A DNA stretch of 64,000 bases, from the NCBI GenBank assembly GCA_944387865.1, contig CALXGN010000006.1, positions 11,355 to 75,354 on the forward strand. The letters are read 5' to 3'. This document shows positions 9,953 through 21,415 of this stretch, in pieces; position 1 is the first letter of the stretch; each line of letters opens with the position of its first letter. Below the pieces are notes generated by a model, which searched no databases, was not told the origin of the DNA, and saw only the letters and a program-made list of their open reading frames with translations. The stretch comes from Candidatus Scatomorpha stercorigallinarum (GTDB lineage: Bacteria; Bacillota; Clostridia; Oscillospirales; Oscillospiraceae). Position numbers and translations under genes: made by a program.

Positions 9953-10145
9953 CTGATGACAGAGCAGGGGCAGGCCCCTGCGACCCTTTTTCTGAGGGGT
10001 TTCTTTTTGTCTTGTCAAAAAGAAACCCCTCAGACTCCAAAGAGAAAACCGCTTTGGTGCGGGTCGTAGGCGGGTGCTGTCTTTTACGGGTTTCCGCGTT
10101 TCGCGGCCGCTCATCCCGTTGTCGGATGGCTTTGTACGCAGACGA

Positions 10146-10612
10146 CCGTGCGTTGCTTCGCTTCGCTCGCGGCACTAAGTTTGCAGAAACCCCAGGGGGC
10201 AAGGGGACGGAGCCCCCAATAAACTCCGCGACAAGCGCGCCGTTTCGCCCAACGCGAACCACGTCCGTGGGCGGGCTCCGCCCGCCCCGCCCATCTCGCA
10301 CGCCCGCGCCCGCCAGCGCGGGCGGCGTATTTAAGTCCCATTTTGCCCCGCAAAATGGGACACATTAGAAAAGCCCGTGCGGTCAGCGGCATAAACCTCC
10401 CAAGCATAGGAATGGCCGCCCGCATAGGGCGGCCAAAATCGCCCCGGGGCTTTGCCTCGGGGCGATACCATATCTTGCGCCTCTGAGGCGCAACCGCGCC
10501 GCCGTGCGGCGCGCAAAATGCATGGCTCTTTGGGGCCACAAGCCCCAAAGAGCCATGCATTTTTTATGGAGGGGAGCCTACGAGGGGGACCCCCGGTCCC
10601 CCTCGTATTTTA
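10146..10612. repeat. Multi-hairpin intergenic repeat element, copy B
   Basis: Co-linear with 270-735 and carries the same series of hairpins. The hairpin at 10517-10559 has a different sequence but the same position and structure as 643-683. Confidence 0.8.
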
Positions 10613-11869
10613 TTTTCTTCTGTATCCCCGCCTCGGCGGCCTCTGCTGGCCGCCTTCGCGCGGCTGCTGCTCGCGGTTTTCGCGCGCCTCGCGATTTTCG
10701 CGCTGTTCGCGGCCCTCGCGGTTTTCGCGCGGCGGGCGCTGCTGCCTGTCGCGCGGCTTACCGCCCTGCCTGTCCGGGCGCTGGCCGTCGCCGCGGCGGG
10801 GCTTTTCCTGCCGCTGCTGTCCGCCGTCGCGCCTGGGCGCGGCCTCGCGGTCGCGGCGCGGCTTTTCAAAATGCCGCCGCTGTTCGCGGTGCGCGCCTTC
10901 GCGCTGGACGTTCACGCGCCGGCGCTCTTCGGCGGCGGGCGCGCCCTCCTGCTCGGGGATGGCCTCGGCGGCGGGGGCGGCGGACGTCTCCGCCGGCGCT
11001 TCCTCTGCCGGCCGGGTCTTGAGCAGATGCGGCAGCGGCTCGCCGGGCTTCGGACGGCCGCCGGGGATGGCGGCCACCTCGTCCGCCGAATAGGTCTTGA
11101 AAACGTCCTCGCCCTCGCCGTCGAGCCGCACCTTCACCGTGCGCCGCAGCAGGTTGACCTGCGTCACATTGCCGTAGCCGGCGGGCGTCTCCACAAAGGC
11201 GCCGTTTTTGGGCACAGTCTTGACCAGGTCCTCATAGGCCTCCTCCTCGTAGCGCAGGCAGCACATCAGCCGCCCGCAGGTGCCGGAGATCTTGGCCGGG
11301 TTGAGCGACATGGACTGCGTCTTGGCCATCTTGGTGGAGACGGGCTGGAAATCGTCCAGGAACTGGCTGCAGCAGAAGGGGCGGCCGCAGATGCCTATGC
11401 CGCCGAGCATCTTCGCCTCGTCGCGCACGCCGATCTGCCGCAGTTCGATGCGGTTGCGGAACACGCTTGCCAGGTCCTTCACCAGTTCGCGGAAGTCCAC
11501 GCGGCCGTCGCTGGTGAAAAAGAAGGTGGTCTTGCCGCCCTCAAAACTGCACTCGGCGCCCACGAGCTTCATTTCCAGCCCGTGCTCGGCTATCTTCTGG
11601 CGGCAGATGACCATCGCCTCCGCCTCACGCTGGCGGTTTATCTCCGCCACGCGCTTGTCGTTGTCCGTCGCCACGCGCACCACGGGCCGGATGGGGGGGA
11701 TGATCTTGTCGTCCGGGATGTAGTGGTTGCCGATCACGCAGGTGGCGTATTCAAGGCCCTTGGAGGTCTCTACGATGACGTCCTCGCCCGCCTCGACATG
11801 GTTGCCGTCCGGGTCGAAATAGTATGCTTTTCCGTTATTTTTGAACTTTACGCTGACAACTTCGGTCAA
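10610..11869 (-). CDS. ricT: RicT/YaaT (PSP1 domain) regulatory iron-sulfur protein with long R/E/Q/P-rich C-terminal tail
   Basis: PSP1 core with GICGRPFCC and GTCGRLMCCLRYE cysteine motifs. It overlaps holB by 4 nt, as in the holB-yaaT synteny. Confidence 0.85.
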   Translation of the reverse strand: MTEVVSVKFKNNGKAYYFDPDGNHVEAGEDVIVETSKGLEYATCVIGNHYIPDDKIIPPIRPVVRVATDNDKRVAEINRQREAEAMVICRQKIAEHGLEMKLVGAECSFEGGKTTFFFTSDGRVDFRELVKDLASVFRNRIELRQIGVRDEAKMLGGIGICGRPFCCSQFLDDFQPVSTKMAKTQSMSLNPAKISGTCGRLMCCLRYEEEAYEDLVKTVPKNGAFVETPAGYGNVTQVNLLRRTVKVRLDGEGEDVFKTYSADEVAAIPGGRPKPGEPLPHLLKTRPAEEAPAETSAAPAAEAIPEQEGAPAAEERRRVNVQREGAHREQRRHFEKPRRDREAAPRRDGGQQRQEKPRRGDGQRPDRQGGKPRDRQQRPPRENREGREQRENREARENREQQPREGGQQRPPRRGYRRK

Positions 11870-12681
11870 TTTTCTTTCCTCATTTCTTCCTGCGGCGCAT
11901 CGCCGCTGACGGAGACGAGCCCCATCACGTGTTTGACGCCGGTGTTAACGCCCAGCCACTGCGCGCAGCGGGAAAAGAGCGCGTCCAGCTCCACACAGCG
12001 CGCGGCGGGCGCGCCCAGCTCCCCGCGGCCGGCGAGCTCGTCGGCCAGGGCCTCGCGCGCGGTGCGGAACATGGCCAGGGCGGAGAGCGTGTCCATATTG
12101 CCGGCGGAGACGGACCAGCGCACCAGCTCGGAGCGCCGGCCGGAGAGCAGGGCGGAGAGCATCTCACGCGCGGCGGCGCGGGCGCTCCCGTCCTCCTCCG
12201 CGTCGGCGTTGATGCGCAAAAGCACGCAGCGCGAGCGCACCGTCACCAGCAGCAGCTCCGGGTTGGCGGCGCAGAGGATGAAGGCCGCGCTGTCGGGCGG
12301 CTCCTCCAGCAGCTTGAGCATGGCGTTCTGCGCGGACGCATTCATCGTGTCCGCGTCGTCGATGATATATACCTTTTTTGCCGCCTCGTTGGGCATCACC
12401 TGCGCGTCCGCGGAGATGTCCCGCACTTGGCCGACGGTGATGCCGCGCTTTTTCTTGCCCTCGGCGTCCTGCCCGGGGGCGATGGCGGCGATGTCCGGGT
12501 GGATGCCGGCCAGGCTCTTGCGGCAGGCCCGGCAGCGGCCGCAGGGGCGCTCGCCGGCGCCCTCGCAGATGATGGCGGCGGCCAGCCGGCGCGAAGCGCG
12601 CGTGCGCTCCGCGGCGGAGGGGGAGGCGACGATATAGGCGTGGGAAGCGTGTTCCCCCGGCCTGAGACTGATGTTTTCCAT
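11866..12681 (-). CDS. holB: DNA polymerase III delta-prime subunit
   Basis: HAYI...CGRCRACR zinc module and clamp-loader AAA+ fold motifs. The start is probably ATG 12681 (MENISL); the ORF is open back to 12717. Confidence 0.8.
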   Translation of the reverse strand: MENISLRPGEHASHAYIVASPSAAERTRASRRLAAAIICEGAGERPCGRCRACRKSLAGIHPDIAAIAPGQDAEGKKKRGITVGQVRDISADAQVMPNEAAKKVYIIDDADTMNASAQNAMLKLLEEPPDSAAFILCAANPELLLVTVRSRCVLLRINADAEEDGSARAAAREMLSALLSGRRSELVRWSVSAGNMDTLSALAMFRTAREALADELAGRGELGAPAARCVELDALFSRCAQWLGVNTGVKHVMGLVSVSGDAPQEEMRKEN

Positions 12682-12820
12682 AAACGGTATTTTACCTTTT
12701 TCCTTCCGGCGAGTCAAGAAAAACCCTGACTGAAGCGCCGCTGGAGGCGAGAAAACTCACTCAAAGCAGTTTAAAACAGGGACATCCAACAAAAAATCGC
12801 AAATTTGTCTGTTTTTTATC

Positions 12821-12849
12821 TTGTAAATCGCGTCAATGTATGCTAACTT
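12821..12849 (+). promoter_or_regulatory. Candidate promoter for the cooC-like operon
   Basis: TTGTAA, 17-nt spacer, TAACTT preceded by TGc, within an AT-rich intergenic region. Confidence 0.3.
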
Positions 12850-12898
12850 ATTATCAAGCAATCTGTGCACATTATCCTAATATCCAAGGGGGGATTTG

Positions 12899-13666
12899 AT
12901 GGGTGAGAGCAAGGCGAAGATCCTGGCGCTGGCCGGCAAGGGCGGCGTTGGGAAAACTTCGCTGGCAGCGGCCATCGTCCGCGTGCTGACGGAGGACCGC
13001 CCCGGCAGCCGTATCCTGGCCATCGACGCCGACCCCGCCGTGGGGCTCTCCACGGCCCTGGGCGTGACGGTGACGGGCTCGCTGGACGATATCCGCCGCG
13101 CCGTTATAAAGAGCGCGGAGGACGGCCGCCCGCGGGAGGCCATCGAGCTGCTCAACGAGTCGCGCTTCCGCATATTCGACACGATGGTGGAGACGAACGG
13201 CTTTTCGTTCCTGGCCATCGGCCGGCCGGAGAACGAGGGCTGCTACTGCAGCGTGAACGCCTATCTGAAAGAGGTCGTGGGCATGCTCGCCAACGACTTC
13301 GACTACGTTGTAATAGACGGAGAGGCGGGCATCGAGCAGATACAGCGCCGCGTGATGGAGAAGGTGAGCCACCTGATTTTAATTTCCGACCAGAGCCGCA
13401 AGGGGACCCACGTGGCGGAGACGATAAAGCAGGTGGCGGACGAGCTGGTGATGTACGACCGAATTGGCGCGATAATAAACCGCGTGACCAACCCGGAGCT
13501 GAACAGGTTCATCTCCATCGAGGGCGTGGAAATCCTGGCCTACATAGAAGCTGACGACCAGCAGGCGGCGAACGACATACAGGGCAAGAGCGTTTTCGGT
13601 CTTGCGGAAGGTTCCAAGGTGCTCTGCGGAGTGAGAGAAGCGCTCCGGAAGATAGATATCCTATGA
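12899..13666 (+). CDS. CooC-type (CODH/ACS nickel-insertion accessory) MinD/ParA-class ATPase
   Basis: Deviant Walker A GKGGVGKTS and the CxC metal-binding motif (EGCYCSVN) characteristic of CooC. SD GGGGGG lies 5 nt before the ATG. Confidence 0.75.
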   Translation: MGESKAKILALAGKGGVGKTSLAAAIVRVLTEDRPGSRILAIDADPAVGLSTALGVTVTGSLDDIRRAVIKSAEDGRPREAIELLNESRFRIFDTMVETNGFSFLAIGRPENEGCYCSVNAYLKEVVGMLANDFDYVVIDGEAGIEQIQRRVMEKVSHLILISDQSRKGTHVAETIKQVADELVMYDRIGAIINRVTNPELNRFISIEGVEILAYIEADDQQAANDIQGKSVFGLAEGSKVLCGVREALRKIDIL

Positions 13667-13687
13667 TTATGAGAGAGGTGTGGACAT

Positions 13688-14884
13688 TTGAAAGATCTTA
13701 AGCATCTGATCTACTTTGAGAGCCTGCTTGACAGCGCGCACAACGAGCTTGTGCGTCAGGCGAAGGAGGAGGGGCAGCTCGCCCTCGGCTTCACCTGCTA
13801 CCACATGCCCGAAGTGCTTCTCAATGTGGACAACTGCTTCTCGGTCAGGCTGCGCGCGCCGAACACCGGCAGTATCGACATAGCCTCGTACTACATGTCG
13901 AACTATACCTGCGAGTATTGCCGCGCCGTCGTCGAGAGGGCCATTGAGGGCGGCTACAACTTCCTGGACGGGCTCTGCGGCGTGGACGCCTGCGCGCAGA
14001 TGAACCGCTGCATGGAGAACATTGAGCTGCTCAAGTGCATCGACAAGCCGAATTTCTTCGTGACCCACGCGGACATACCCTACAAGTACACGGACTACAC
14101 GCTCGACCACTACGTGACGCAGATGCAGAACCGCGTGCTTAACACCATGCACGAGAAGTTGGGCGTCGACATCTCCGACGCCGCGCTGCGCGACTCCGTG
14201 GCGAGGCACAACGAGATCTGCAAGATCATAACCGAGCTCGGCGAGCTGCGCAAAAAGCCCAACCCGCCCATCACGGGCTATGAGTTCCACGTCATCAACA
14301 TGGTGAGCTTCTGCTGCCCGCAGCGGCTGATCCTGCCCTACCTGAAGGAGACGCTGACGGAGGTCAAAAAGCGCAAGCCGGATGCGAAGCCCTGGTACCG
14401 CTGCCGCGTCGGCATAGTCGGCTCCGAGGTGGACGACCCGAACCTCACCAGGATGCTCGAGGAGGCCGGGGCCTTCATCGTTTTCGACCGCTTCTGCTTC
14501 GGCGCGCTGCCCGGCCGCGAGGTCATCGAGCTGAACGACGAGGAGCCCGCCCTGAGGCAGATATGCCGGCACTACCTCCTCACCAGCGAGTGTCCCCGCT
14601 TCATGTCCAACGAAAAAATCGCCCAGCGGCGCGAGACTGCCGACCGCCTTGCCCGCGAGTACTCCGCGGACGGCATAATTTACGAGAACGTGAAGTTCTG
14701 CGACTTCTGGGGCTTCGAGCGCGCGCTTGCGAGCCACGTACAGCACGAGGAGTACGGCCACCCCGTGCTCACAATAGACCGCCCGTATAATGCCCGCACC
14801 TCCGGCCAGCTCCGCACTCGCTTCCAGGCGTTTGTCGAGTCGCTGGAGATCAAGCGCATACAGCAGGGGAAGGAGGTCAAATAA
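13688..14884 (+). CDS. 2-hydroxyacyl-CoA dehydratase family protein, small (HgdB/BcrC-like) subunit
   Basis: HGD-D family signatures: FTCYHMPE near the N-terminus, many conserved Cys, and a C-terminal VKFCDFW motif. TTG start with a GAGAGGTG SD. Confidence 0.75.
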   Translation: MKDLKHLIYFESLLDSAHNELVRQAKEEGQLALGFTCYHMPEVLLNVDNCFSVRLRAPNTGSIDIASYYMSNYTCEYCRAVVERAIEGGYNFLDGLCGVDACAQMNRCMENIELLKCIDKPNFFVTHADIPYKYTDYTLDHYVTQMQNRVLNTMHEKLGVDISDAALRDSVARHNEICKIITELGELRKKPNPPITGYEFHVINMVSFCCPQRLILPYLKETLTEVKKRKPDAKPWYRCRVGIVGSEVDDPNLTRMLEEAGAFIVFDRFCFGALPGREVIELNDEEPALRQICRHYLLTSECPRFMSNEKIAQRRETADRLAREYSADGIIYENVKFCDFWGFERALASHVQHEEYGHPVLTIDRPYNARTSGQLRTRFQAFVESLEIKRIQQGKEVK

Positions 14885-16633
14885 ATGCTCAAGGCGAACA
14901 TAAACTGGATCAAGAAAAACGCGAAGAGCGACCTGAAAATCTGGAAGGACCTCATCAGCGAGGTGGATTGGAAGGACTTCGCCGGTAAAATGAAGCACAA
15001 AGCCCAGCTGGACCGCGAGCGCATCGCCGACGAGGTGAAGAGCTTCGCCGCCCTGCCTCCCAAGGAGAAGTGGGACCGCGTTATAAACGGCGAGAGGCAG
15101 CTCGGGCGGCTTTATCAGAAGGGCGCGATAGCCTTTACCCGCCGCGAGTGGAAGGGCGTTGAGAGCACTGCCCGCGACTTCTACGGCTGGCTCATCATCT
15201 GGCGCGACATGATAAAGATGGTCATGCGCGACCCGCTGACCATTGCCCTCGGCCTCTTTGAATACCGCTGGTTCAGCTCCTATCTGGCCTGCCCGGCCTT
15301 CATAGACCGCAATACCCTCGGCTTCCGCGGCCGCGCCGTGACGATGAACCACCTGCTGATGGCGGACATCTACCGCTATACGGAGGACTGCATCGCCAAG
15401 CTGCTGATGGCCGACCGCCGCCTGGGCGGCAACGACAAGATAAACAACAAGATCATGCTTTTCGACGAGATGACCATGGCGCAGATGATGGCCGGCTTCC
15501 CGGGCCTCATCGGCCTGCCCTATCAGCTGATCCCCGTGTTCCTCGTCTCCGAGCTCGACCAGCTTATCTGCATCCCCTATATCGACGCCGTGGAGAGCTA
15601 CGGCCTGCCGGCGGACACCTGCCCGGTCCCGACCAGCGAAAGCGGCAGCGCCATTGTCGACGCCCTGCCTCACTGCGGGCTCGGCTTCATTTCGACCTCC
15701 ACGCCCTGTGACGGCTCCGACATGGCAACCAGCTTCCAGGAGCGCCGCCTGAAGAAACTCGGTATCCCCACCTTCCCGCTGACTCTCCCGGTGCGTTACG
15801 ACGACGAGGACACCGTTGAGTGCGGTGCGCAGGACATGTGGCACTGCATCAAGTGGGTGGAGGACATCACCGGCGAAAAGTGGGACTGGGACCACTACTT
15901 CGAGGTCATCCGCCGCTTCAACGAGCAGACGAAGATGGAGATGGAGAAGTGGGACATGAACTCCACCCCCTATCCGCAGCTGATCGGCCCCTGCTACGAG
16001 CTTTTCCGCAAGTGGAACTACGAGATGGACGGCGGCCTCAACCCCGACGTCATGAAGACCTTCTACAAGGTCCGCAAGCTGATGTACAAGTCCTACGAGC
16101 AGCGCTGCAACCCCTACCGCCACCCGATGAAGTACCGCGCGGTGGTCTGGAGCTGCCCGGCGCACTACTACGCGAACTTCTCCAACTGGCTGGCCAACGC
16201 CTGGGGCATCGGCGTCCTGGTGGAGATGGAGAGCCTGAACTTCACCAAGCAGCTTGAGACCGAGGACCACGAGGAAGCCATCCGCGACCTGGCCCGCCTG
16301 TACGAGCGCATGGTCATGCGCAAGCACACCAACGGCGGCTATGTCCACGTGCTGGACGAGCTGTGGAAGGTCTGCGAGCAGTTCAACGCAAACTTCATCA
16401 TCATGTACCAGCACGTCTGCTGCAAGACGATGGCGGGGCTGCAGGGCCTCTTCGACGAGCAGGCGCGCGAGCGCGGGCTGCACCTCATCTGGGTCGAGCA
16501 CGACCTGATGGATCCCCGCACCGTCTCCCGCCGCGATATGCGCGCCAAGGTCTCCAACTACATGCGCGCCATTATCCAGGCCGAGCCCACGGACGAGAGC
16601 CTGATAGAGTTCGAGGACGACATCACCTGGTAA
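14885..16633 (+). CDS. 2-hydroxyacyl-CoA dehydratase family protein, enlarged (582 aa) HgdA-like subunit
   Basis: Abuts the previous stop with no gap. Motifs DTCPVP, STPCDGS and HVCCKTMAG are typical of the family. It carries an N-terminal extension of roughly 100-150 aa. Confidence 0.7.
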   Translation: MLKANINWIKKNAKSDLKIWKDLISEVDWKDFAGKMKHKAQLDRERIADEVKSFAALPPKEKWDRVINGERQLGRLYQKGAIAFTRREWKGVESTARDFYGWLIIWRDMIKMVMRDPLTIALGLFEYRWFSSYLACPAFIDRNTLGFRGRAVTMNHLLMADIYRYTEDCIAKLLMADRRLGGNDKINNKIMLFDEMTMAQMMAGFPGLIGLPYQLIPVFLVSELDQLICIPYIDAVESYGLPADTCPVPTSESGSAIVDALPHCGLGFISTSTPCDGSDMATSFQERRLKKLGIPTFPLTLPVRYDDEDTVECGAQDMWHCIKWVEDITGEKWDWDHYFEVIRRFNEQTKMEMEKWDMNSTPYPQLIGPCYELFRKWNYEMDGGLNPDVMKTFYKVRKLMYKSYEQRCNPYRHPMKYRAVVWSCPAHYYANFSNWLANAWGIGVLVEMESLNFTKQLETEDHEEAIRDLARLYERMVMRKHTNGGYVHVLDELWKVCEQFNANFIIMYQHVCCKTMAGLQGLFDEQARERGLHLIWVEHDLMDPRTVSRRDMRAKVSNYMRAIIQAEPTDESLIEFEDDITW

Positions 16634-16692
16634 TACCCTTCGCTGGGCCACTTTGAATAAAAAATATTGAATCTAATGGGAGGAAATATATA

Positions 16693-17496
16693 ATGAAGTA
16701 CTTTGGAGGGTGCGACGTAGGCTCTACCTACACCAAGGCGGTCATCCTGGACGAGACCGGCAAGATGGTGGCCAATACCACGATACGCAGCAAGATAAAT
16801 TCCGAGCAGAGCGCCATCATGGCGATGAAGGAAGTCATCGACCAGGTGCCCGAGCTCAACAGCAGCGAGGACCTCGCCTACCTCATCGGCACGGGCTACG
16901 GCCGCAACAAGGTCCCCTTCGCGGATGAGAACATCTCCGAGATCAGCTGCCACGCCATGGGCGTGCACGTCACGGACCCCAATGTCCGCGCTATCATCGA
17001 CATCGGCGGCCAGGACGTCAAGGGCATCAGCATCGATACCGACGGCACCGTTAAGAACTTCGCCATGAACGACAAGTGCTCCGCCGGCACGGGCCGCTTC
17101 TTCGAGGCCATGGCCAACGCCTTCGAGCTCAGCCTGCCGGAATTCTCCAACCTCAGCCTGACGGCCAAGAACGTCATCCCCATCACCGCCCAGTGCACCG
17201 TTTTCGCCGAGAGCGAGGTCATCACCCTCGTCGGCGAGGGCAAGCCCACCGACGAGATCGCCGCGGGCATCGAGATGGCCGTCGCCAAACGCTGCTTCGT
17301 CATGGCGAAGAAGGCCGGCGCCACCGATTCCATCACCCTCACCGGCGGCTGCGCCAAGAACGAGGGCCTGAAGCAGGCCATCGAGCACGTCCTCAAGCTG
17401 AAGGTCATCAACCTCAAGACCGACCCGCAGCTGATGGGCGCCCTGGGCGCCGCCGAGTACGCCCGCCAGAAGGGCCTGGCCAAGGCCGCCAACTGA
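16693..17496 (+). CDS. HgdC-type ATP-dependent activase (archerase; BcrA/BcrD/BadF ATPase family)
   Basis: GGCDVGSTYTKAV phosphate-1 motif. Both bridging-cluster Cys contexts are present: NDKCSAGTGRF and AQCTVFAESEV. Confidence 0.85.
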   Translation: MKYFGGCDVGSTYTKAVILDETGKMVANTTIRSKINSEQSAIMAMKEVIDQVPELNSSEDLAYLIGTGYGRNKVPFADENISEISCHAMGVHVTDPNVRAIIDIGGQDVKGISIDTDGTVKNFAMNDKCSAGTGRFFEAMANAFELSLPEFSNLSLTAKNVIPITAQCTVFAESEVITLVGEGKPTDEIAAGIEMAVAKRCFVMAKKAGATDSITLTGGCAKNEGLKQAIEHVLKLKVINLKTDPQLMGALGAAEYARQKGLAKAAN

Positions 17497-17561
17497 CCGG
17501 CGAGGGCCGGGCGCGGCCCGGCGTGACCGCACACCCTGAGATGAAAGGAATGGTCAAATAA

Positions 17562-17738
17562 ATGAAGAAAGGCTGCAAGATCTGTAAGCTGTTCAAAACG
17601 CTGTTCGGTATCATGGCGGCTGTGGTGGGCGTGCTGTTCACCATATACATGCTCAACCTGGATATGAAGCTCGTCGGCTGGCTCTATACGGTGCTCAACA
17701 AGTTCCACGACCGCAAGGTCAGGGACGTGCAGTTCTGA
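17562..17738 (+). CDS. Unannotated 58-aa single-pass membrane peptide
   Basis: MKKGCKICKLFKTLFGIMAAVVGVLFTIYML... has one clear TM helix. SD GAAAGGA lies upstream, the stop is 1 nt before the next ATG, and third positions are GC-rich. It falls below the 60-aa cut-off of the ORF track. Confidence 0.5.
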   Translation: MKKGCKICKLFKTLFGIMAAVVGVLFTIYMLNLDMKLVGWLYTVLNKFHDRKVRDVQF

Positions 17739-17739
17739 T

Positions 17740-18468
17740 ATGGAGCTTTACGATCCCACAATCCGCGAGGTACTGGGCAGGCTTTCCGCCAACGGCCGCA
17801 GCTGGGATTACGACCCCTCCGCCGCCTGGCGCGACCTGGGGCAGAACGAGCTTGTCCTGGGGCGGGACGCCGCCTATGAGCTGGGCGGCGGCAGCAACCC
17901 CGCCGGCAACTTCACCTGCGTGACCACGGACGGCGCCCTGGTGGGCGCGGACCGGGTGACGCTCGTGGGCCCGGACATCGGCGAGATCCGCGCGGACTGC
18001 CCCTTCTGCCGCATCGCCCTGCTGCACGTGAACGACATCAGCGGCGACGACCAGGAGGCCTTCAGCGCCATCCGCAACATGGAGTTCGTCAAGTACCATG
18101 TGTTCCCGGAGGGATACATGATGCGTATTTCCCCGGAAAACCGCCGCGAGCAGGTGCGCGTTTCCAGGCGCGCGGTGAAGAAGGGCCTCAGCTTCCGCCA
18201 TATCGGCAACAGCTTTATCAAAAAGTACAAGGAGAACAGCCTTATCGACCACGCGCAGATCATTTTCGTCACCGGCGACAGGCAGCTCTGCCAGGAGCTC
18301 GCCGAAACGGCGAAAAAAGTGGACGCGATAACGCTGACGCTCAACCACATCATGGACGGCCTCGCCACCGACTGCAGCGTGTGTTCGTTCAAGCCCGTCT
18401 GCGACGAGGTGGAGGGCCTGAAGGAGCTGCACTTCAAAAAGGGCGAAAAGCCGATGGACGTCAAGTAA
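17740..18468 (+). CDS. Acetyl-CoA synthase (AcsB/CdhC) middle-domain homologue, truncated before the Ni-Ni site
   Basis: Blocks ELGGG, VTLVGPDIGEI, VRVSRRAVKKGLSFRHIGNSFIKKY, IIFVTGD and the terminal CSVCSFKPVC resemble ACS/CdhC as I recall those sequences. Not checked by computation. Confidence 0.6.
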   Translation: MELYDPTIREVLGRLSANGRSWDYDPSAAWRDLGQNELVLGRDAAYELGGGSNPAGNFTCVTTDGALVGADRVTLVGPDIGEIRADCPFCRIALLHVNDISGDDQEAFSAIRNMEFVKYHVFPEGYMMRISPENRREQVRVSRRAVKKGLSFRHIGNSFIKKYKENSLIDHAQIIFVTGDRQLCQELAETAKKVDAITLTLNHIMDGLATDCSVCSFKPVCDEVEGLKELHFKKGEKPMDVK

Positions 18469-18476
18469 AAAGAATA

Positions 18477-18506
18477 AGAAAGAGCGCCCCGCGGGGCGCT
18501 CTTTCT
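18477..18506. terminator. Shared (convergent) terminator hairpin
   Basis: agaaagagcgcc-ccgcgg-ggcgctctttct. The trail is T-rich on the minus strand and weaker on the plus strand. Confidence 0.45.
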
Positions 18507-18510
18507 GCGT

Positions 18511-18861
18511 TCATATGTCGTTTTCGCGGCTGTGCCTGGGGCAGTCGCGGCGGCAGGAGCCGCAGGGCCGCTGGCGGGGGCAGACCTCATAGTCCCCGCC
18601 GCCGATGACCAGCTCGCGGCCGGCGACGAGGCAGAGCGCGAGCTTGTGCCGCGCGGAGTTATAGATGGCCTGCACGGTGCTGCGGCTGATCTGCATCTGC
18701 GCCGCCGCCTCCTCCTGGGTCAGGCCCTCGAGGTCGATGAGGCGGATGCACTCATACTCGTCCACGGCCATGGCCAGGCGCTCGCCGGCCGCCGAGCGGG
18801 GGCCGAACTCCGTGTGCAGAGGCAGCTCGCAGACGCGCCGGCATTTCCGCGGCCGGGGCAT
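18511..18861 (-). CDS. DUF134 (UPF0251) putative DNA-binding protein with C-terminal Cys cluster
   Basis: N-terminal MPRPRKCRRVC signature, a sigma-70 region-4-like HTH (LTQEEAAAQMQISRSTV), and the tail CPRQRPCGSCRRDCP. Start trimmed to ATG 18861, which overlaps the upstream stop (TGATG). Confidence 0.75.
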   Translation of the reverse strand: MPRPRKCRRVCELPLHTEFGPRSAAGERLAMAVDEYECIRLIDLEGLTQEEAAAQMQISRSTVQAIYNSARHKLALCLVAGRELVIGGGDYEVCPRQRPCGSCRRDCPRHSRENDI

Positions 18862-19292
18862 CAGCCGTGGCAGCAGCCGTGGCCATGGCCGTGGCCGCCG
18901 TGGTGCTCCTCGCAGCCGGCGTCGCCGTGGTGATGGCCGCACTCATGGCCCTCGCCGTGGTGATGGTCGCAGTTGGCGTCGCTGCTGTAGCTGAGCGTGC
19001 CCGCCAGCAGGGCCTCCACCGCCGCGTCCGCGCTGCCCTGCACGCCTGCGTAGAGCTGTATGCCCGCCTCGGCCAGGGCCATGCGCGCGCCGCCGCCCAG
19101 GCCGCCGCAGATGAGGGCGTCCACGCCGTGGGAGCGCAGGAAGCCGGCCAGGGCCCCGTGGCCAAAGCCGCCCGTGGGCAGGATGGCGCTGTTGACGACC
19201 TTGCCGTCCTCGACGTCGTAGAGCTTGAACTGCTCGGTGTGGCCAAAGTGCTGGAACACGCTGCCGTTTTCGTAAGTGACTGCTATTTTCAT
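18861..19292 (-). CDS. NifB/NifX-family (dinitrogenase FeMo-cofactor-binding fold) protein with His/Cys-rich tail
   Basis: MKIAVTYENGSVFQHFGHT... matches the NifX-like fold. The 35-aa tail is CDHHHGEGHECGHHHGDAGCEEHHGGHGHGHGCCHG. Confidence 0.75.
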   Translation of the reverse strand: MKIAVTYENGSVFQHFGHTEQFKLYDVEDGKVVNSAILPTGGFGHGALAGFLRSHGVDALICGGLGGGARMALAEAGIQLYAGVQGSADAAVEALLAGTLSYSSDANCDHHHGEGHECGHHHGDAGCEEHHGGHGHGHGCCHG

Positions 19293-19309
19293 GTTTGCTA
19301 CCTCCGTGG

Positions 19310-19356
19310 TTATTGGCTTATGCCAATAATATAGCACGCAAACCGGCATATGTCAA
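19310..19356 (-). promoter_or_regulatory. Promoter plus palindromic operator for the NifX-like/DUF134 operon
   Basis: Minus strand TTGACA (19356-19351), 17-nt spacer, TATATT (19333-19328) with TGc extension. The perfect palindrome ttattggc-ttat-gccaataa (19310-19329) overlaps the -10 box. Confidence 0.5.
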
Positions 19357-19360
19357 TAAC

Positions 19361-19394
19361 AAAATGCAAAAATGCCCCGGCAGAGCCGGGGCAT
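19361..19394 (-). terminator. Rho-independent terminator after the LbH gene
   Basis: atgccccgg-cagag-ccggggcat followed by ttttgcatttt on the minus strand. Confidence 0.55.
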
Positions 19395-19403
19395 TTTATG
19401 TCC

Positions 19404-20063
19404 TTATACGCGCCGGACGATCTCGCCGGGGGCTTTGAAGATACAGCCCTCGGGCACCACGCCGCGCACGGAACTCGTGGGGTAGACGCTGACGCGCCGG
19501 CCCAGCACGCAGCCGGGGTTCAGCACGCTGTTGCAGCCAACTTCAACATAGTCGCCGAGGATGGCGCCGAATTTTTTCAGCCCGGTGGGGAGGTATTCGT
19601 CGCCGTTTTTGACAACCACCAGCGTCTTGTCGCTCTTGACGTTGGAGGTGATGCTGCCCGCGCCCATGTGCGACTTGTAGCCGAGGATGGAGTCGCCGAC
19701 GTAGTTGTAGTGCGGCGTCTGCACATTGTCGAAGAGCACGGCGTTCTTGAGCTCCACGCTGTTGCCGACCACGCAGTTCTTGCCGACGATGGCGCTGCCG
19801 CGGATAAAGGCGCAGTGGCGCACCTCCGCGCCGTGGTCGATGATGCAGGGGCCGCCGATGTAGGCGGAGGGGAACACCTTCGCGTCCTTCGCTATCCAGA
19901 CGTCCTCCGCCGGATGGTCGAATTCCGCCTCCGGCAGCGTGGGGCCAAGGGCGAGGATGAAGCCCTTTATCTCCGGCAGGACCTCCCATGGATATTCGTG
20001 TCCCTCGAAGAGGGGGGCGGCGATGGTGTGGCTCAGATCGAGCAGGTCATTTATTTTGTACAT
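19404..20063 (-). CDS. Stand-alone left-handed beta-helix acyltransferase, GlmU C-terminal-domain-like
   Basis: Hexapeptide repeats (IGGPCIIDHGAEV, IVGKNCVVGNSVEL, VGDSILG, ...). The start ATG overlaps the glmM stop (ATGA). Confidence 0.7.
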   Translation of the reverse strand: MYKINDLLDLSHTIAAPLFEGHEYPWEVLPEIKGFILALGPTLPEAEFDHPAEDVWIAKDAKVFPSAYIGGPCIIDHGAEVRHCAFIRGSAIVGKNCVVGNSVELKNAVLFDNVQTPHYNYVGDSILGYKSHMGAGSITSNVKSDKTLVVVKNGDEYLPTGLKKFGAILGDYVEVGCNSVLNPGCVLGRRVSVYPTSSVRGVVPEGCIFKAPGEIVRRV

Positions 20064-21415
20064 CACTTCACCCCCACGAGGTGGCCGCTCTTGCGCATGG
20101 CGTCGATTATGGCGTCCACGCTGCGCTCGCACTCATCGTCCGTTTCCGCCTCGGCCATCACGCGCAGCAGCGGCTCGGTGCCGCTCTTGCGCAGGAGGAC
20201 GCGCCCGCGGTCGCCCAGGCGCGCCTCTTCGGCGGCCACGGCGGCGGTGACGGCGCTGTCCGCAAGCGTGCTGTCCTTGTCGTCCACGACGACGTTTTTC
20301 AGCACCTGCGGATAGATGGTCACCGGCTCGCAGAGCTTGCTCAGCGGCTGGCGCGTGTCCAGCATCGCCTGCATCACCTTGAGCGCGGTGATGAGCCCGT
20401 CGCCGGTGGTGGCGTATTTGGAGAAGATTATGTGCCCGCTCTGCTCCCCGCCGATGAGGTGTCCGTGCTCGCGCATGTTCTCCCAGACGTACTTGTCGCC
20501 GACGGCGGTCTTTTCATAGTTTATCCCGGCCGCGTCGAGCGCCTTGTAGAGGCCGAGGTTGCTCATGACGGTGGTGACGACAGTGTTGGTGTCCAGCCGG
20601 CCGCGGTCCTTCATGTGCCTGGCGCAGATGTACATTATCTTGTCGCCGGAGACCACCTCGCCGTTTTCGTCCACGGCCAGGCAGCGGTCGGCGTCCCCGT
20701 CGAAGGCGAAGCCGACGTCCAGCCCCTCCTCGCGCACGAGCTTCTGCAGGTTGGCGAGGTGGGTGGAGCCGCAGTCCACGTTGATGTTCAGCCCGTCCGG
20801 CCGGGCGCTGATGACATAGGTGTCCGCCCCCAGGGCGTCGAACACGCTCTTGGCAATCATCCAGGTGCTGCCGTTTGCGCAGTCCAGGCCGACCTTCACG
20901 CCCTTGTAGGAGTGGGTGGAGAGGCTGATGAGATAGCCTATGTAGCGGTTGCGCCCGGCGGAGTAATCCACCGTGCGGCCGATGTCGGCGCCCACGGCCA
21001 GCGGCGGCTCGGGCGCGATGCCGTCGAGGTATTTTTCTATCTCGTCCAGCACGGCCTGCTCCATCTTCTCGCCGTCGCCGTTGATGAGCTTGATGCCGTT
21101 GTCGTGATAGGGGTTGTGGCTGGCGCTGATCATCACGCCGCAGTCAAAGTCGTCCACGCGCGCGATGTAGCTGACGCTGGGCGTGGTGGTGACGTGCAGC
21201 AGATAGGCGTCCGCCCCCGAGCTGGTGAGCCCGGCGGCCAGCGCGCACTCGTACATGTAGCTGCTGCGGCGCGTATCCTTGCCGATGACGACGTTGCAGC
21301 CCTTGCCGCGGCCAAAGTACCAGCCGATGAAGCGCCCGATCTTAAAGGCGTGCTCGGCTGTGAGATCGACGTTGGCTTCGCCGCGGAAGCCGTCCGTCCC
21401 GAAATATTTTGACAT
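20063..21415 (-). CDS. glmM: Phosphoglucosamine mutase
   Basis: MSKYFGTDGFRG start, SASHNP phosphoserine loop, GDGDADR metal loop, GEQSGH. Confidence 0.92.
   Translation of the reverse strand: MSKYFGTDGFRGEANVDLTAEHAFKIGRFIGWYFGRGKGCNVVIGKDTRRSSYMYECALAAGLTSSGADAYLLHVTTTPSVSYIARVDDFDCGVMISASHNPYHDNGIKLINGDGEKMEQAVLDEIEKYLDGIAPEPPLAVGADIGRTVDYSAGRNRYIGYLISLSTHSYKGVKVGLDCANGSTWMIAKSVFDALGADTYVISARPDGLNINVDCGSTHLANLQKLVREEGLDVGFAFDGDADRCLAVDENGEVVSGDKIMYICARHMKDRGRLDTNTVVTTVMSNLGLYKALDAAGINYEKTAVGDKYVWENMREHGHLIGGEQSGHIIFSKYATTGDGLITALKVMQAMLDTRQPLSKLCEPVTIYPQVLKNVVVDDKDSTLADSAVTAAVAAEEARLGDRGRVLLRKSGTEPLLRVMAEAETDDECERSVDAIIDAMRKSGHLVGVK

Follow-up and report, generated by a model that had tools for sequence, protein, structure and literature searches.

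A stand-alone fragment of acetyl-CoA synthase encoded together with a CooC-type ATPase in an anaerobe operon

In silico analysis of a 64,000-nt stretch of Candidatus Scatomorpha stercorigallinarum DNA (hereafter the window) revealed a gene at 17740..18468 (+) encoding a small protein of 242 aa, built of the middle (A2) domain of acetyl-CoA synthase (ACS) followed by a short tail with counterparts of the first cysteines of the ACS metal-cluster site. Two of these cysteines are aligned directly with A-cluster ligands, whereas the correspondence of the third is inferred. The protein is not an ACS. It belongs to a deep family of anaerobe proteins, for which no paper or curated model was found, comprising at least 610 clusters at 50% identity (more than 2000 at 90%) from at least 562 species, nearly all of 230-250 aa. 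The family travels with a nickel-chaperone-like ATPase and an ATP-driven radical enzyme rather than with the carbon-fixation machinery. In the window the gene is the last of six in an operon, the elements of which are as follows.

12896..13666 (+), CooC/AcsF-type P-loop ATPase, 256 aa, first gene of the operon
13688..14884 (+), small HGD-D subunit, 398 aa, of an enzyme of the BCR/HAD/double-cubane superfamily
14885..16633 (+), large HGD-D subunit, 582 aa
16693..17496 (+), HgdC/BcrAD-type ATP-dependent activase ("archerase"), 267 aa
17562..17738 (+), conserved 58-aa microprotein with one hydrophobic helix
17740..18468 (+), 242-aa stand-alone ACS A2-domain (CdhC-like) protein with a C-terminal Cys-triplet tail
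17854..18282 (+), segment of the latter gene encoding residues 39-181, which match Pfam PF03598 (ACS middle domain)
18370..18435 (+), segment encoding the family signature tail, D211-C212-x2-C215-x5-C221-DEVEGLKELHF
18477..18506 (no strand assigned), 13-bp GC-rich hairpin between the convergent CdhC-like and DUF134 genes, the probable end of the operon

The open reading frame starts with ATG, and the preliminary description of it, made from the sequence alone, holds. All sequence blocks named there as ACS-like are present in the translation: ELGGG (residues 47-51), VTLVGPDIGEI (73-83), VRVSRRAVKKGLSFRHIGNSFIKKYKE (139-165), IIFVTGD (174-180) and DCSVCSFKPVC (211-221). The similarity to ACS is well beyond chance. 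The protein passes Pfam PF03598 with 42.6 bits (gathering score 24; E 7.5e-11), residues 39-181 covering profile positions 14-153 of 155; the NCBIfam models place this region at ACS alpha/beta positions 309-461 of 705. A phmmer search against PDB ACS chains gave E 3.7e-8, and the family profile searched against the PDB gave E 6e-11. The AF2-predicted core has a pLDDT of mostly 75-95, and a Foldseek search with the model returned 23 hits at E<=1e-3, all of them ACS chains (about 3.4 A rmsd over 159 columns to 7zkj_B), the best non-ACS hit having E 0.5; the predicted fold matches only the middle (A2) domain of ACS. In contrast, the NCBIfam equivalog models for ACS (NF040764, TIGR00316 and related) score only 34-41 bits against cutoffs of 356-809.

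The C-terminal tail was examined separately, as the position of its cysteines had been set beforehand as a test of the ACS assignment. The window protein possesses seven Cys, not three (60, 87, 90, 184, 212, 215 and 221), of which only 212, 215 and 221 are conserved family-wide. These three are the only invariant columns in 64 sequences down to 27% identity, and are present in 104-105 of 106 in a wider set. The Pfam and phmmer matches obtained with the single sequence stop before the Cys triplet; only the family profile extends through D-C-x-x-C, placing C212 and C215 on Moorella Cys506 and Cys509 (S-C506-V-L-C509), and no match extends beyond Moorella residue 510. The ACS sequence itself reads C-LL-C-QSFAPTHV-C-IVSPERVGL-C, a spacing of C-x2-C-x8-C-x9-C, so that C221 corresponds to Cys518 only if a 3-residue deletion is assumed. 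This last match rests on collinearity and on an S-F-x-P...V-C resemblance seen only in this subclade. A profile of the tail alone, searched against the PDB, gave no ACS hit at E<=10, and homology of the Cys site therefore rests on collinearity. The protein ends 21 residues after C221, with no further Cys, and thus lacks the fourth cubane ligand (Moorella Cys528), the Cys-Gly-Cys nickel site and the whole A3 domain. The tail (residues 206-242) is the only low-confidence part of the model, with pLDDT below 50. It is not a classical ferredoxin motif: there is no Fer4 hit, and the D-C-x2-C-x5-C motif contains three Cys only, in place of the CX2CX2CX3CP type.

Other cysteines were considered as ligands and rejected. 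C60, a candidate for the missing fourth ligand, is invariant among close relatives but is L/A/C/M in the deep family and lies in a predicted beta-strand, as a buried hydrophobic position. The C87-x2-C90 pair occurs in only 5 of 118 close sequences and is lineage-specific. A CxxC in the microprotein occurs only in the window copy. Among longer family members, only the representative P0265 is a genuine fusion, carrying a 2x[4Fe-4S] ferredoxin domain directly after the tail; the others are loop insertions, an internal duplication or a probable chimera.

The gene context was missed in the preliminary description, although it carries most of the functional information, above all the CooC-type ATPase and the BCR/HAD-type enzyme. 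The first gene encodes an ATPase (Pfam CbiA/AAA_31) with a deviant, MinD-type Walker A (GKGGVGKTS) and a putative metal-site motif, G-C116-Y-C118. Its best PDB match is CooC1 (3kje, E 3e-13), with EGCYCSVNAYL aligned on the CooC1 metal-site sequence SQCYCRENSFL. The Walker A and RPE..GCYC..N.YL are invariant in 47/47 unique orthologues found next to CdhC-like genes. The small HGD-D subunit matches PF06050 with 297 bits, and its PDB matches are BzdN (8s02_B, E 9.5e-23), DCCP (6eno, E 6e-17) and HadC (3o3m_B). It scores 131 bits against the NCBIfam double-cubane model NF040772 (cutoff 350); Cys lie near six of the seven positions of the [8Fe-9S] motif CX19CX18-19CX29CX166-170CX32-34CX32C, the strict spacing of which is not matched, the motif fitting only with a 10-residue slack. 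In the large subunit PF06050 covers residues 232-556 only, the first ~230 residues match no known family, and the only PDB hit is weak (MbdO 9g87_A, E 3e-6). The activase matches PF01869 with 187 bits and TIGR00241 (acyl-CoA dehydratase activase) with 212 bits, above its cutoff of 125, and is 85-99% identical across gut-clade loci. The stop codon of the microprotein lies 1 nt before the ATG of the CdhC-like gene. Orthologues of 51-55 aa occupy the same position in four related loci (numbered L001, L003, L086 and L088), and tblastn finds the microprotein in the full clusters; the shared motif is VLFxVYxxNLDxKLxxWxY..K.FDRK..D..F.

The partnership was analysed in related loci. Of 54 non-redundant gut-clade loci, 29 contain the full six-gene cluster, and 42 contain the CooC-like gene within 9 kb, in 11 of which it is the only partner present. 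In a further 11 of the 54 none of the partners lies within 9 kb, and the gene sits among housekeeping genes. In the variant locus L088 a CobW-family GTPase gene is present and no CooC-like gene is found. The same partner set recurs, in a different gene order, in a divergent environmental clade (clade B) of only 27-31% identity, where the CooC-like gene lies immediately downstream in 37 of 38 long loci; in locus L116 the two genes overlap by 8 nt. Some loci (L001 and clade B) carry two HGD-D pairs but a single CdhC-like/CooC-like pair. No CODH, CoFeSP or methyltransferase genes were seen in the annotated neighbourhoods of the window or of L001, L003, L064, L085-L088 and L116, a result that concerns these neighbourhoods and not whole genomes, and every locus examined lies outside Wood-Ljungdahl gene contexts. 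The downstream DUF134 and His-rich NifX-like genes are syntenic only in the two closest relatives and were rejected as parts of the system. A metal-sensing riboswitch is not supported, as there is no Rfam hit anywhere in the window. Literature searches for a known third (gamma) subunit of 2-hydroxyglutaryl-CoA dehydratase, or for this gene combination, returned nothing relevant: the "CdhC-like" protein of PMC13370988 is full-length archaeal ACS, and papers on the SAO locus and on isoprene reductase describe unrelated systems.

The best explanation, held with no more than moderate confidence, is that the protein is a stand-alone derivative of ACS, consisting of the A2 domain, the A2-A3 linker helix and the first stretch of the A-cluster binding loop, with the equivalents of Cys506, Cys509 and (inferred) Cys518. 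It cannot make acetyl-CoA, because the fourth cubane ligand, the Cys-Gly-Cys and the A3 domain are missing. It is proposed that the flexible Cys triplet binds a metal centre, most likely a site-differentiated [4Fe-4S] cluster whose fourth position is open or is filled at a protein interface. It is further proposed that the protein works as a functional pair with the co-encoded CooC/AcsF-type ATPase, in the way ACS is the client of AcsF, the two acting as a shared accessory module (metal-centre maturation and/or redox activation) for an uncharacterised ATP-dependent radical enzyme of the benzoyl-CoA-reductase/2-hydroxyacyl-CoA-dehydratase/double-cubane superfamily. The analysis itself establishes the homology, the truncation, the conservation of the three Cys and the conserved gene partnership, whereas metal binding, the physical pairing with the ATPase and the accessory role are inferred from sequence and gene context alone. 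In favour of a metal site are the Cys conservation, the low-confidence tail and the P0265 fusion; in favour of an accessory rather than catalytic role, the loci with two HGD-D pairs and a single CdhC-like/CooC-like pair. Against the proposal, every CooC-type ATPase characterised so far inserts nickel, but no nickel ligand set is evident here. The gut-clade loci with none of the partners within 9 kb, the variant locus L088 with no CooC-like gene, and the tail profile that does not find ACS also speak against it.

The interpretation offered in the preliminary description is partly supported. A stand-alone ACS middle-domain protein that stops before the fourth ligand and the Cys-Gly-Cys, and that lies outside Wood-Ljungdahl contexts, is borne out, whereas the equivalence of the third Cys is only inferred. 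Of the two roles suggested there, a purely structural one is disfavoured, because the three Cys are the only invariant residues down to 27% identity, and a site completed at an interface with another subunit fits the low-confidence tail and the conserved partners.

Among the alternatives, a dedicated electron-transfer subunit is possible but unlikely. In this view the three-Cys [4Fe-4S] cluster would pass low-potential electrons to the activase or to the HGD-D clusters, as BzdM-type ferredoxins do in benzoyl-CoA reductase systems, and the CooC-like ATPase would be unrelated or would only mature the cluster. The P0265 fusion, a 436-aa Fer4 protein in the same cluster in clade-B loci, a large Fer4/Pyr_redox_2 oxidoreductase in L088, and the need of enzymes of this superfamily for a low-potential electron donor (PMC7317905) speak in its favour. 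However, only one fusion was seen among 150 representatives, and pure electron carriers normally use four protein ligands. This view explains neither why the tightest partner is a CooC-type ATPase nor why an A2 domain of about 200 residues is retained with its own conserved residues (E47, L48, G49, G77, G125, R129, E137, R140, G156).

A more doubtful alternative is a CoA- or nucleotide-binding subunit, which would hold or present the acyl-CoA substrate to the radical enzyme by the surface with which the ACS A2 domain binds acetyl-CoA, the Cys triplet being a structural Zn or Fe-S site. The family keeps the R-[VI]-S-K block and the basic residues R129, R136, R140 and K/R143; the divergent clade keeps the Trp before that block invariantly (REWxRISK), and its loci contain acyl-CoA dehydrogenase and 4HBT thioesterase genes. 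Partner enzymes of this superfamily often act on CoA thioesters. On the other hand, that Trp is replaced in the window protein (Q138) and in most of the family (Q 34, W 16 of 106), and the ACS Arg/His pair near the thiol (Moorella R405/H408, mapped by inference from a numbering offset) aligns with M114/Y119. A structural site would not be expected to be the only invariant feature, and the CooC-type partner is not explained.

It is improbable, although not excluded, that the protein carries part of a new heterometallic, A-cluster-like catalytic site, in which C215, the equivalent of the Cys509 that bridges the cubane to proximal Ni in ACS, would bridge a [4Fe-4S] cluster to a Ni ion inserted by the CooC-like ATPase, with the remaining ligands coming from a partner subunit. 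The first two A-cluster Cys are retained in register, the CooC-type partner looks obligate and has an intact putative metal site, a CooT nickel-chaperone gene is next to one cluster (L003), and a CobW/HypB-family GTPase gene is in another (L088). However, there is no Cys-Gly-Cys or other obvious Ni ligand set, the nickel-related neighbours are sporadic (one locus each), the synteny of the His-rich NifX-like neighbour is confined to the two closest relatives, and no member of the HGD-D superfamily is known to contain Ni. In the boldest, likewise unlikely, form of this reading, the CdhC-like protein and its ATPase would build a new interface metallocentre, an A-cluster-like [4Fe-4S]-Cys-bridged heterometal (possibly nickel) site, on or for a benzoyl-CoA-reductase/dehydratase-type enzyme. 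This would define a previously unknown class of nickel- or heterometal-dependent ATP-driven radical enzymes, widespread in gut and sediment anaerobes, and would show that the front half of the A-cluster is an independently evolving module. A decaying ACS remnant or mis-called ORF, suggested by the truncation and the scores far below the ACS equivalog cutoffs, is refuted by the similar length of the family clusters and by the conservation of start, Cys triplet and gene context down to 27% identity.

ACS and its A-cluster have been treated as exclusive to the Wood-Ljungdahl pathway, and CooC/AcsF-type ATPases as exclusive to CODH/ACS maturation. Here both modules appear, in cut-down form, as a conserved pair inside gene clusters for ATP-driven radical enzymes. 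The family is common, and many of its species-level genomes are abundant gut and rumen Oscillospiraceae; Brotocaccenecus cirricatena CLA-AA-H272 (locus L060) is a cultured carrier. Databases currently label its members "carbon monoxide dehydrogenase", which could inflate estimates of CO or acetogenic potential in microbiome surveys. If the pair does mature or activate a metal centre, this would reveal an unrecognised requirement for producing this enzyme class heterologously, and would give a tractable small protein for studying how CooC-type ATPases recognise their clients; if nickel is involved, a new nickel enzyme family would be added. Either way, the family shows that the A-cluster binding loop can evolve separately from the rest of ACS.

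Compared to ACS (AcsB/CdhC, e.g. Moorella thermoacetica 1oao/1mjg and Carboxydothermus hydrogenoformans 7zkj/1ru3), the protein shares the predicted A2 fold with its conserved blocks (E-x-GG, GPD, R-[VI]-S-K-x-A), the linker helix and the C-x2-C aligned with Cys506/Cys509. It differs in the lack of the A1 and A3 domains, of Cys528 and of the Cys595-Gly-Cys597 Ni-Ni site, in an x5 rather than x8 spacing to the third Cys, in the replacement of the adenine-stacking Trp by Gln, and in its gene neighbourhood. The operon resembles those of ATP-dependent radical enzymes of the FldB/C superfamily with HgdC/BcrAD activators (benzoyl-CoA reductases BzdNOPQ/MbdONQP, 2-hydroxyacyl-CoA dehydratases HadBC-HadI, and the double-cubane protein DCCP with DCCP-R) in having two HGD-D subunits plus an activase, and three-Cys [4Fe-4S] sites are typical of this superfamily (PMC7317905). 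However, none of the described systems that could be found in the literature includes a CooC-type ATPase, an ACS-domain protein or the 51-58-aa microprotein, and the large subunit has an unmatched N-terminal extension of about 230 aa. The closest parallel for the gene pair is given by the AcsF-ACS and CooC-CODH maturation pairs, in which a CooC-type MinD-family ATPase inserts Ni into its client. Here, too, an ATPase with the CxC motif is encoded next to, and sometimes translationally coupled with, an ACS-derived protein retaining part of the site AcsF acts on. In contrast to those pairs, no nickel involvement has been shown, the putative client lacks the nickel ligands, and the pair is embedded in BCR/HAD-type enzyme clusters rather than in Wood-Ljungdahl operons.

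The open reading frame at 17740..18468 (+) is present, starts with ATG and encodes a protein of 242 residues. The preliminary description, in which it was presented as a stand-alone ACS middle-domain protein that keeps three A-cluster cysteines but ends before the Ni-Ni site, is confirmed as an observation. Every sequence block that it had matched to ACS is found in the translation, and the protein ends 21 residues after C221. The homologues all start at the same M-E/D-L-Y, which indicates that the start codon is correctly assigned. The resemblance to ACS is statistically solid. The Pfam model PF03598 is matched by residues 39-181 with an E-value of 7.5e-11 and 42.6 bits, against a gathering score of 24. 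The NCBIfam ACS models match the same stretch, corresponding to positions about 309-465 of the bacterial alpha/beta protein, although with scores of only 34-41 bits against equivalog cutoffs of 356-809. A phmmer search against the PDB returned only ACS chains at significant E-values, namely C. hydrogenoformans 328-485 and Moorella 332-482. The AlphaFold2 model has a mean pLDDT of 75.8 and a pTM of 0.77, with a confident core over residues 1-205. Foldseek matched this model to 23 PDB chains at E<=1e-3, all of them ACS, with about 3.4 A rmsd over 159 columns to 7zkj_B, whereas the next hit has an E-value of 0.5. The core is therefore an ACS middle (A2) domain.

The alignments made with the single sequence stop at residue 181-196, before the cysteine triplet. 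A profile was therefore constructed from 64 family members reaching down to 27% identity, and with this profile the alignment to Moorella ACS extends through l-D-C-k-s-C-k onto Y-S-C506-V-L-C509-Q. The placement of the cysteines relative to the A-cluster ligands had been set beforehand as a criterion for rejecting the assignment, and by this criterion C212 and C215 sit on the first two A-cluster ligands. The C. hydrogenoformans ACS sequence reads YYS-C505-LL-C508-QSFAPTHV-C517-IVSPERVGL-C527 (Moorella numbering is +1), while the window protein reads TD-C212-SV-C215-SFKPV-C221-DEVEG. The latter fits C-x2-C-(Q)-S-F-x-P-(TH)-V-C with a deletion of 3 residues. However, the S-F-x-P resemblance holds only in this subclade, since the family consensus is C-x2-C-x-L-K-x-I-C, and a profile of the tail alone does not retrieve ACS at E<=10. 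The correspondence is therefore positional, dependent on collinear extension from the anchored A2 alignment, and for the third cysteine it is inferred. There is no cysteine after position 221, so the equivalents of Cys528 and of Cys595-Gly-Cys597 are absent, as is the whole A3 domain.

The window protein contains seven cysteines in total. C60 is conserved only in the gut clade (109 of 118 sequences), is L/A/C/M in the deep family and lies in a predicted strand, so it is a core position and not a ligand. C87 and C90 (17998-18009, +) form a second C-x2-C (DCPFCRI), which occurs in only 5 of 118 close sequences: the window protein and four close relatives with at least 73% identity (family members P0001, P0002, P0003 and P0011). 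Elsewhere these positions are V/T/S and A, and the pair could be a lineage-specific extra ligand pair. C184 varies.

The protein is not an isolated case. A homologue search returned 2018 clusters at 90% identity, nearly all of 235-247 aa. Where a source names them at all, as for the members P0040, P0088, P0114 and P0119, the name is "carbon monoxide dehydrogenase" or "CO dehydrogenase/acetyl-CoA synthase beta subunit", a misannotation that could distort the functional profiling of gut metagenomes. An exhaustive search of representatives at 50% identity found at least 610 proteins at E<=1e-3 and 108 at E<=1e-30, and among the listed full-length hits almost all are 230-250 aa. A scan of one genome per species found at least 562 genomes with a relative, most of them gut and rumen Oscillospiraceae MAGs, with some Lachnospiraceae and others; the nearest is "Ca. 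Scatomorpha intestinavium". Across the deep alignment the only invariant columns are C212, C215 and C221, whereas E47, L48, G49, G77, G125, R129, E137, R140 and G156 are nearly invariant. The tail signature is [ML]-D-C-x2-C-x-[LF]-K-x-[IV]-C-D-E-V-E-G-[LM]-[RK]-E-L-H-F, in which D211 is conserved at 90%, D222/E223/E225 at 70-80% and H231 at 79%. None of these is an obligatory fourth ligand. NCBIfam has no model for the family.

The gene neighbourhood, which the preliminary description had not considered, shows that the gene is the last of six co-directional genes, followed by a hairpin:
12896-13666 (+), a MinD-family ATPase (the CooC-like gene)
13688-14884 (+), an HGD-D protein of 398 aa
14885-16633 (+), an HGD-D protein of 582 aa
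16693-17496 (+), a BcrAD_BadFG / TIGR00241 activase
17562-17738 (+), a hydrophobic ORF of 58 aa
17740-18468 (+), the CdhC-like gene
18477-18506, a 13-bp hairpin

Upstream lie divergent housekeeping genes, holB and a PSP1-domain gene. Downstream, at 18511-19349 (-), lie convergent DUF134 (HTH) and Nitro_FeMo-Co (NifX-like) genes. The NifX-like protein ends in a His/Cys-rich tail (HHHGEGHECGHHHGDAGCEEHHGGHGHGHGCCHG) typical of metal-binding proteins, and as the two ORFs as listed overlap by 82 nt, the DUF134 start is probably further downstream. Both genes are syntenic only in the loci L005 and L006 and are thus probably not part of the system. In L005, the locus of "Ca. Scatomorpha intestinavium", compared with window 12896-20132, the identity is 99% for the CooC-like, small HGD-D and activase proteins, but drops to 95% for the large HGD-D protein, 94% for the microprotein, 86% for the CdhC-like protein and 79-89% for the downstream genes, which looks like a recombination boundary inside the operon. 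The high G+C content (about 64%) produces long spurious antisense ORFs at 13667-16651 (-) and many other places, for example 994 aa opposite the two HGD-D genes and 588 aa at 10871-12637 (+). None of them has a family match, so ORF length alone is unreliable in this window.

The best solved relative of the ATPase is CooC1, and its EGCYCSVNAYL aligns with SQCYCRENSFL of CooC1, the Cys-x-Cys metal site at the dimer interface (PMC6006190). The small HGD-D subunit is nearest to BzdN of class I benzoyl-CoA reductase, then to the double-cubane protein and HadC. It scores 131 bits on the double-cubane model against a cutoff of 350, and the published 7-Cys spacing is not matched strictly. The large subunit matches only MbdO, and weakly; its first ~230 residues (14885-15580, +) match no Pfam, NCBIfam or PDB sequence. 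The equivalent subunit is 521 aa in the variant locus L088 and 503 aa in the most divergent clade (clade B). The microprotein at 17562-17738 (+) is a real conserved gene with one hydrophobic helix, possibly a membrane anchor, and no family match. It is present in the full clusters, orthologues of 51-55 aa occupy the same slot with a shared motif, and its stop codon lies 1-3 nt before the CdhC-like start. L088 has a second one (59 aa) after the large HGD-D gene.

The conservation of the partnership was examined in 54 non-redundant gut-clade loci with at least 5.3 kb of upstream sequence. All five partners are found in 29 of them. In 11 loci only the CooC-like gene is present, directly adjacent, as in L085, which belongs to a cluster of 2338 member sequences. 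A further 11 loci have none of the partners within 9 kb and belong to a distinct subclade flanked by MatE, a two-component system and recA. The remaining 3 are variants; in L088 a CobW-family GTPase gene and a Fer4/Pyr_redox_2 oxidoreductase gene are present and no CooC-like gene is found. The CooC-like gene is thus present in 42 of 54 loci, and its Walker A and GCYC..N.YL motifs are invariant in 47 of 47 unique sequences. In L003, one Oscillospiraceae MAG, a CooT nickel-chaperone gene (62 aa) and a DUF8180 gene lie divergently upstream of the six-gene cluster (2248-2881, -), an arrangement seen in that one locus only.

In addition, 80 metagenome loci of the most divergent clade, 27-31% identical to the window protein, were retrieved. 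In 37 of 38 loci of at least 9 kb a CooC-like gene lies immediately downstream of the CdhC-like gene. Most of these loci also have two tandem BcrAD-type ATPase genes immediately upstream, an HGD-D pair before them, and a second HGD-D pair, a ferredoxin-domain protein and a third activase after. In the clade-B locus L116 the CdhC-like and CooC-like genes overlap by 8 nt; that locus also carries acyl-CoA dehydrogenase, SDR and 4HBT thioesterase genes. Clade-B loci further contain a conserved 427-aa protein with no Pfam match just upstream of the first HGD-D pair (L116 3327-4610, +) and, on the opposite strand, a RACo-like (reductive activator of corrinoid protein) gene, another ASKHA-type redox ATPase (L116 17486-18715, -); L101 is arranged likewise. 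The set of CdhC-like gene, CooC-like gene, BcrAD-type ATPase and HGD-D pair therefore survives deep sequence divergence and shuffling of gene order, which is strong evidence of a functional link, with the CooC-like ATPase as the closest partner.

The protein cannot be an acetyl-CoA synthase. Its only invariant residues are three cysteines on a tail that is the sole low-confidence part of the model, which is the signature of a metal site that needs a cofactor or a partner to become ordered. A three-Cys site suggests a [4Fe-4S] cluster with one differentiated iron, as in the HadB and HadC subunits of this same enzyme superfamily (PMC7317905), the alternative being a site completed by a partner. 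One natural fusion, the 308-aa metagenome representative P0265, places a 2x[4Fe-4S] ferredoxin domain (CTGCEACLESCP...CTGCGRCIPACP) right after the tail of a complete CdhC-like module, which supports a redox-active Fe-S reading. Loci with two catalytic HGD-D pairs but a single CdhC-like/CooC-like pair suggest a shared accessory role, not a stoichiometric catalytic subunit. This is the case in clade B and in L001, where a second HGD-D pair (397 and 552 aa) plus a 96-aa ORF (10085-13245, -) lies a few kb from the six-gene cluster without an activase, CooC-like or CdhC-like gene of its own, which suggests shared accessory factors. The protein is therefore interpreted as a putative metal- or Fe-S-binding client or adaptor of the CooC-type ATPase, acting as a maturation/activation accessory for the BCR/HAD-type enzyme, a general statement that is about as likely to be right as not. 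The identity of the metal, the physical contacts and the exact role are inferred. The interpretation given in the preliminary description is partly supported: the analysis bears out the identity of the protein, while the correspondence of the third cysteine and the binding of any cluster are inferred.

Among the other explanations, a plain electron-transfer subunit remains possible but unlikely; it is favoured by the ferredoxin fusion and the Fer4 neighbours, but leaves the CooC-like partner and the conserved A2 surface unexplained. Somewhat more doubtful is a CoA-binding subunit. In ACS, acetyl-CoA binds mainly to A2, where a Trp stacks on the adenine and a basic patch faces the diphosphate. 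The family keeps the R-V-S-K block and the basic residues, but the Trp before that block is Gln138 here and varies across the family, although it is invariant in the divergent clade. The mapping of C. autoethanogenum Trp405 to this position is itself inferred from a numbering offset. An A-cluster-like heterometallic site with Ni is improbable, since the nickel hints (CooT in L003, CobW in L088) are sporadic and no Ni ligand set is visible. A gene remnant is refuted by the conservation data.

No description was found in the literature of the stand-alone A2-plus-half-site architecture, of its family-wide invariant three-Cys tail, or of its conserved partnership with a CooC-type ATPase, an archerase-type activase, HGD-D subunits and a microprotein, and the protein is possibly part of a new multi-component system. 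The reuse of ACS and CooC modules in gut Clostridia next to radical enzymes would surprise a specialist in Ni-Fe-S enzymes, and the hypothesis is directly testable with a small soluble protein. The fold and the motif, in contrast, are known from ACS. The nearest characterised analogy to the conserved pairing is AcsF acting on ACS, AcsF being a CooC-type ATPase that is reported to insert Ni at the site bridged by Cys509 (Gregg et al. 2016, as cited in PMC10134865).
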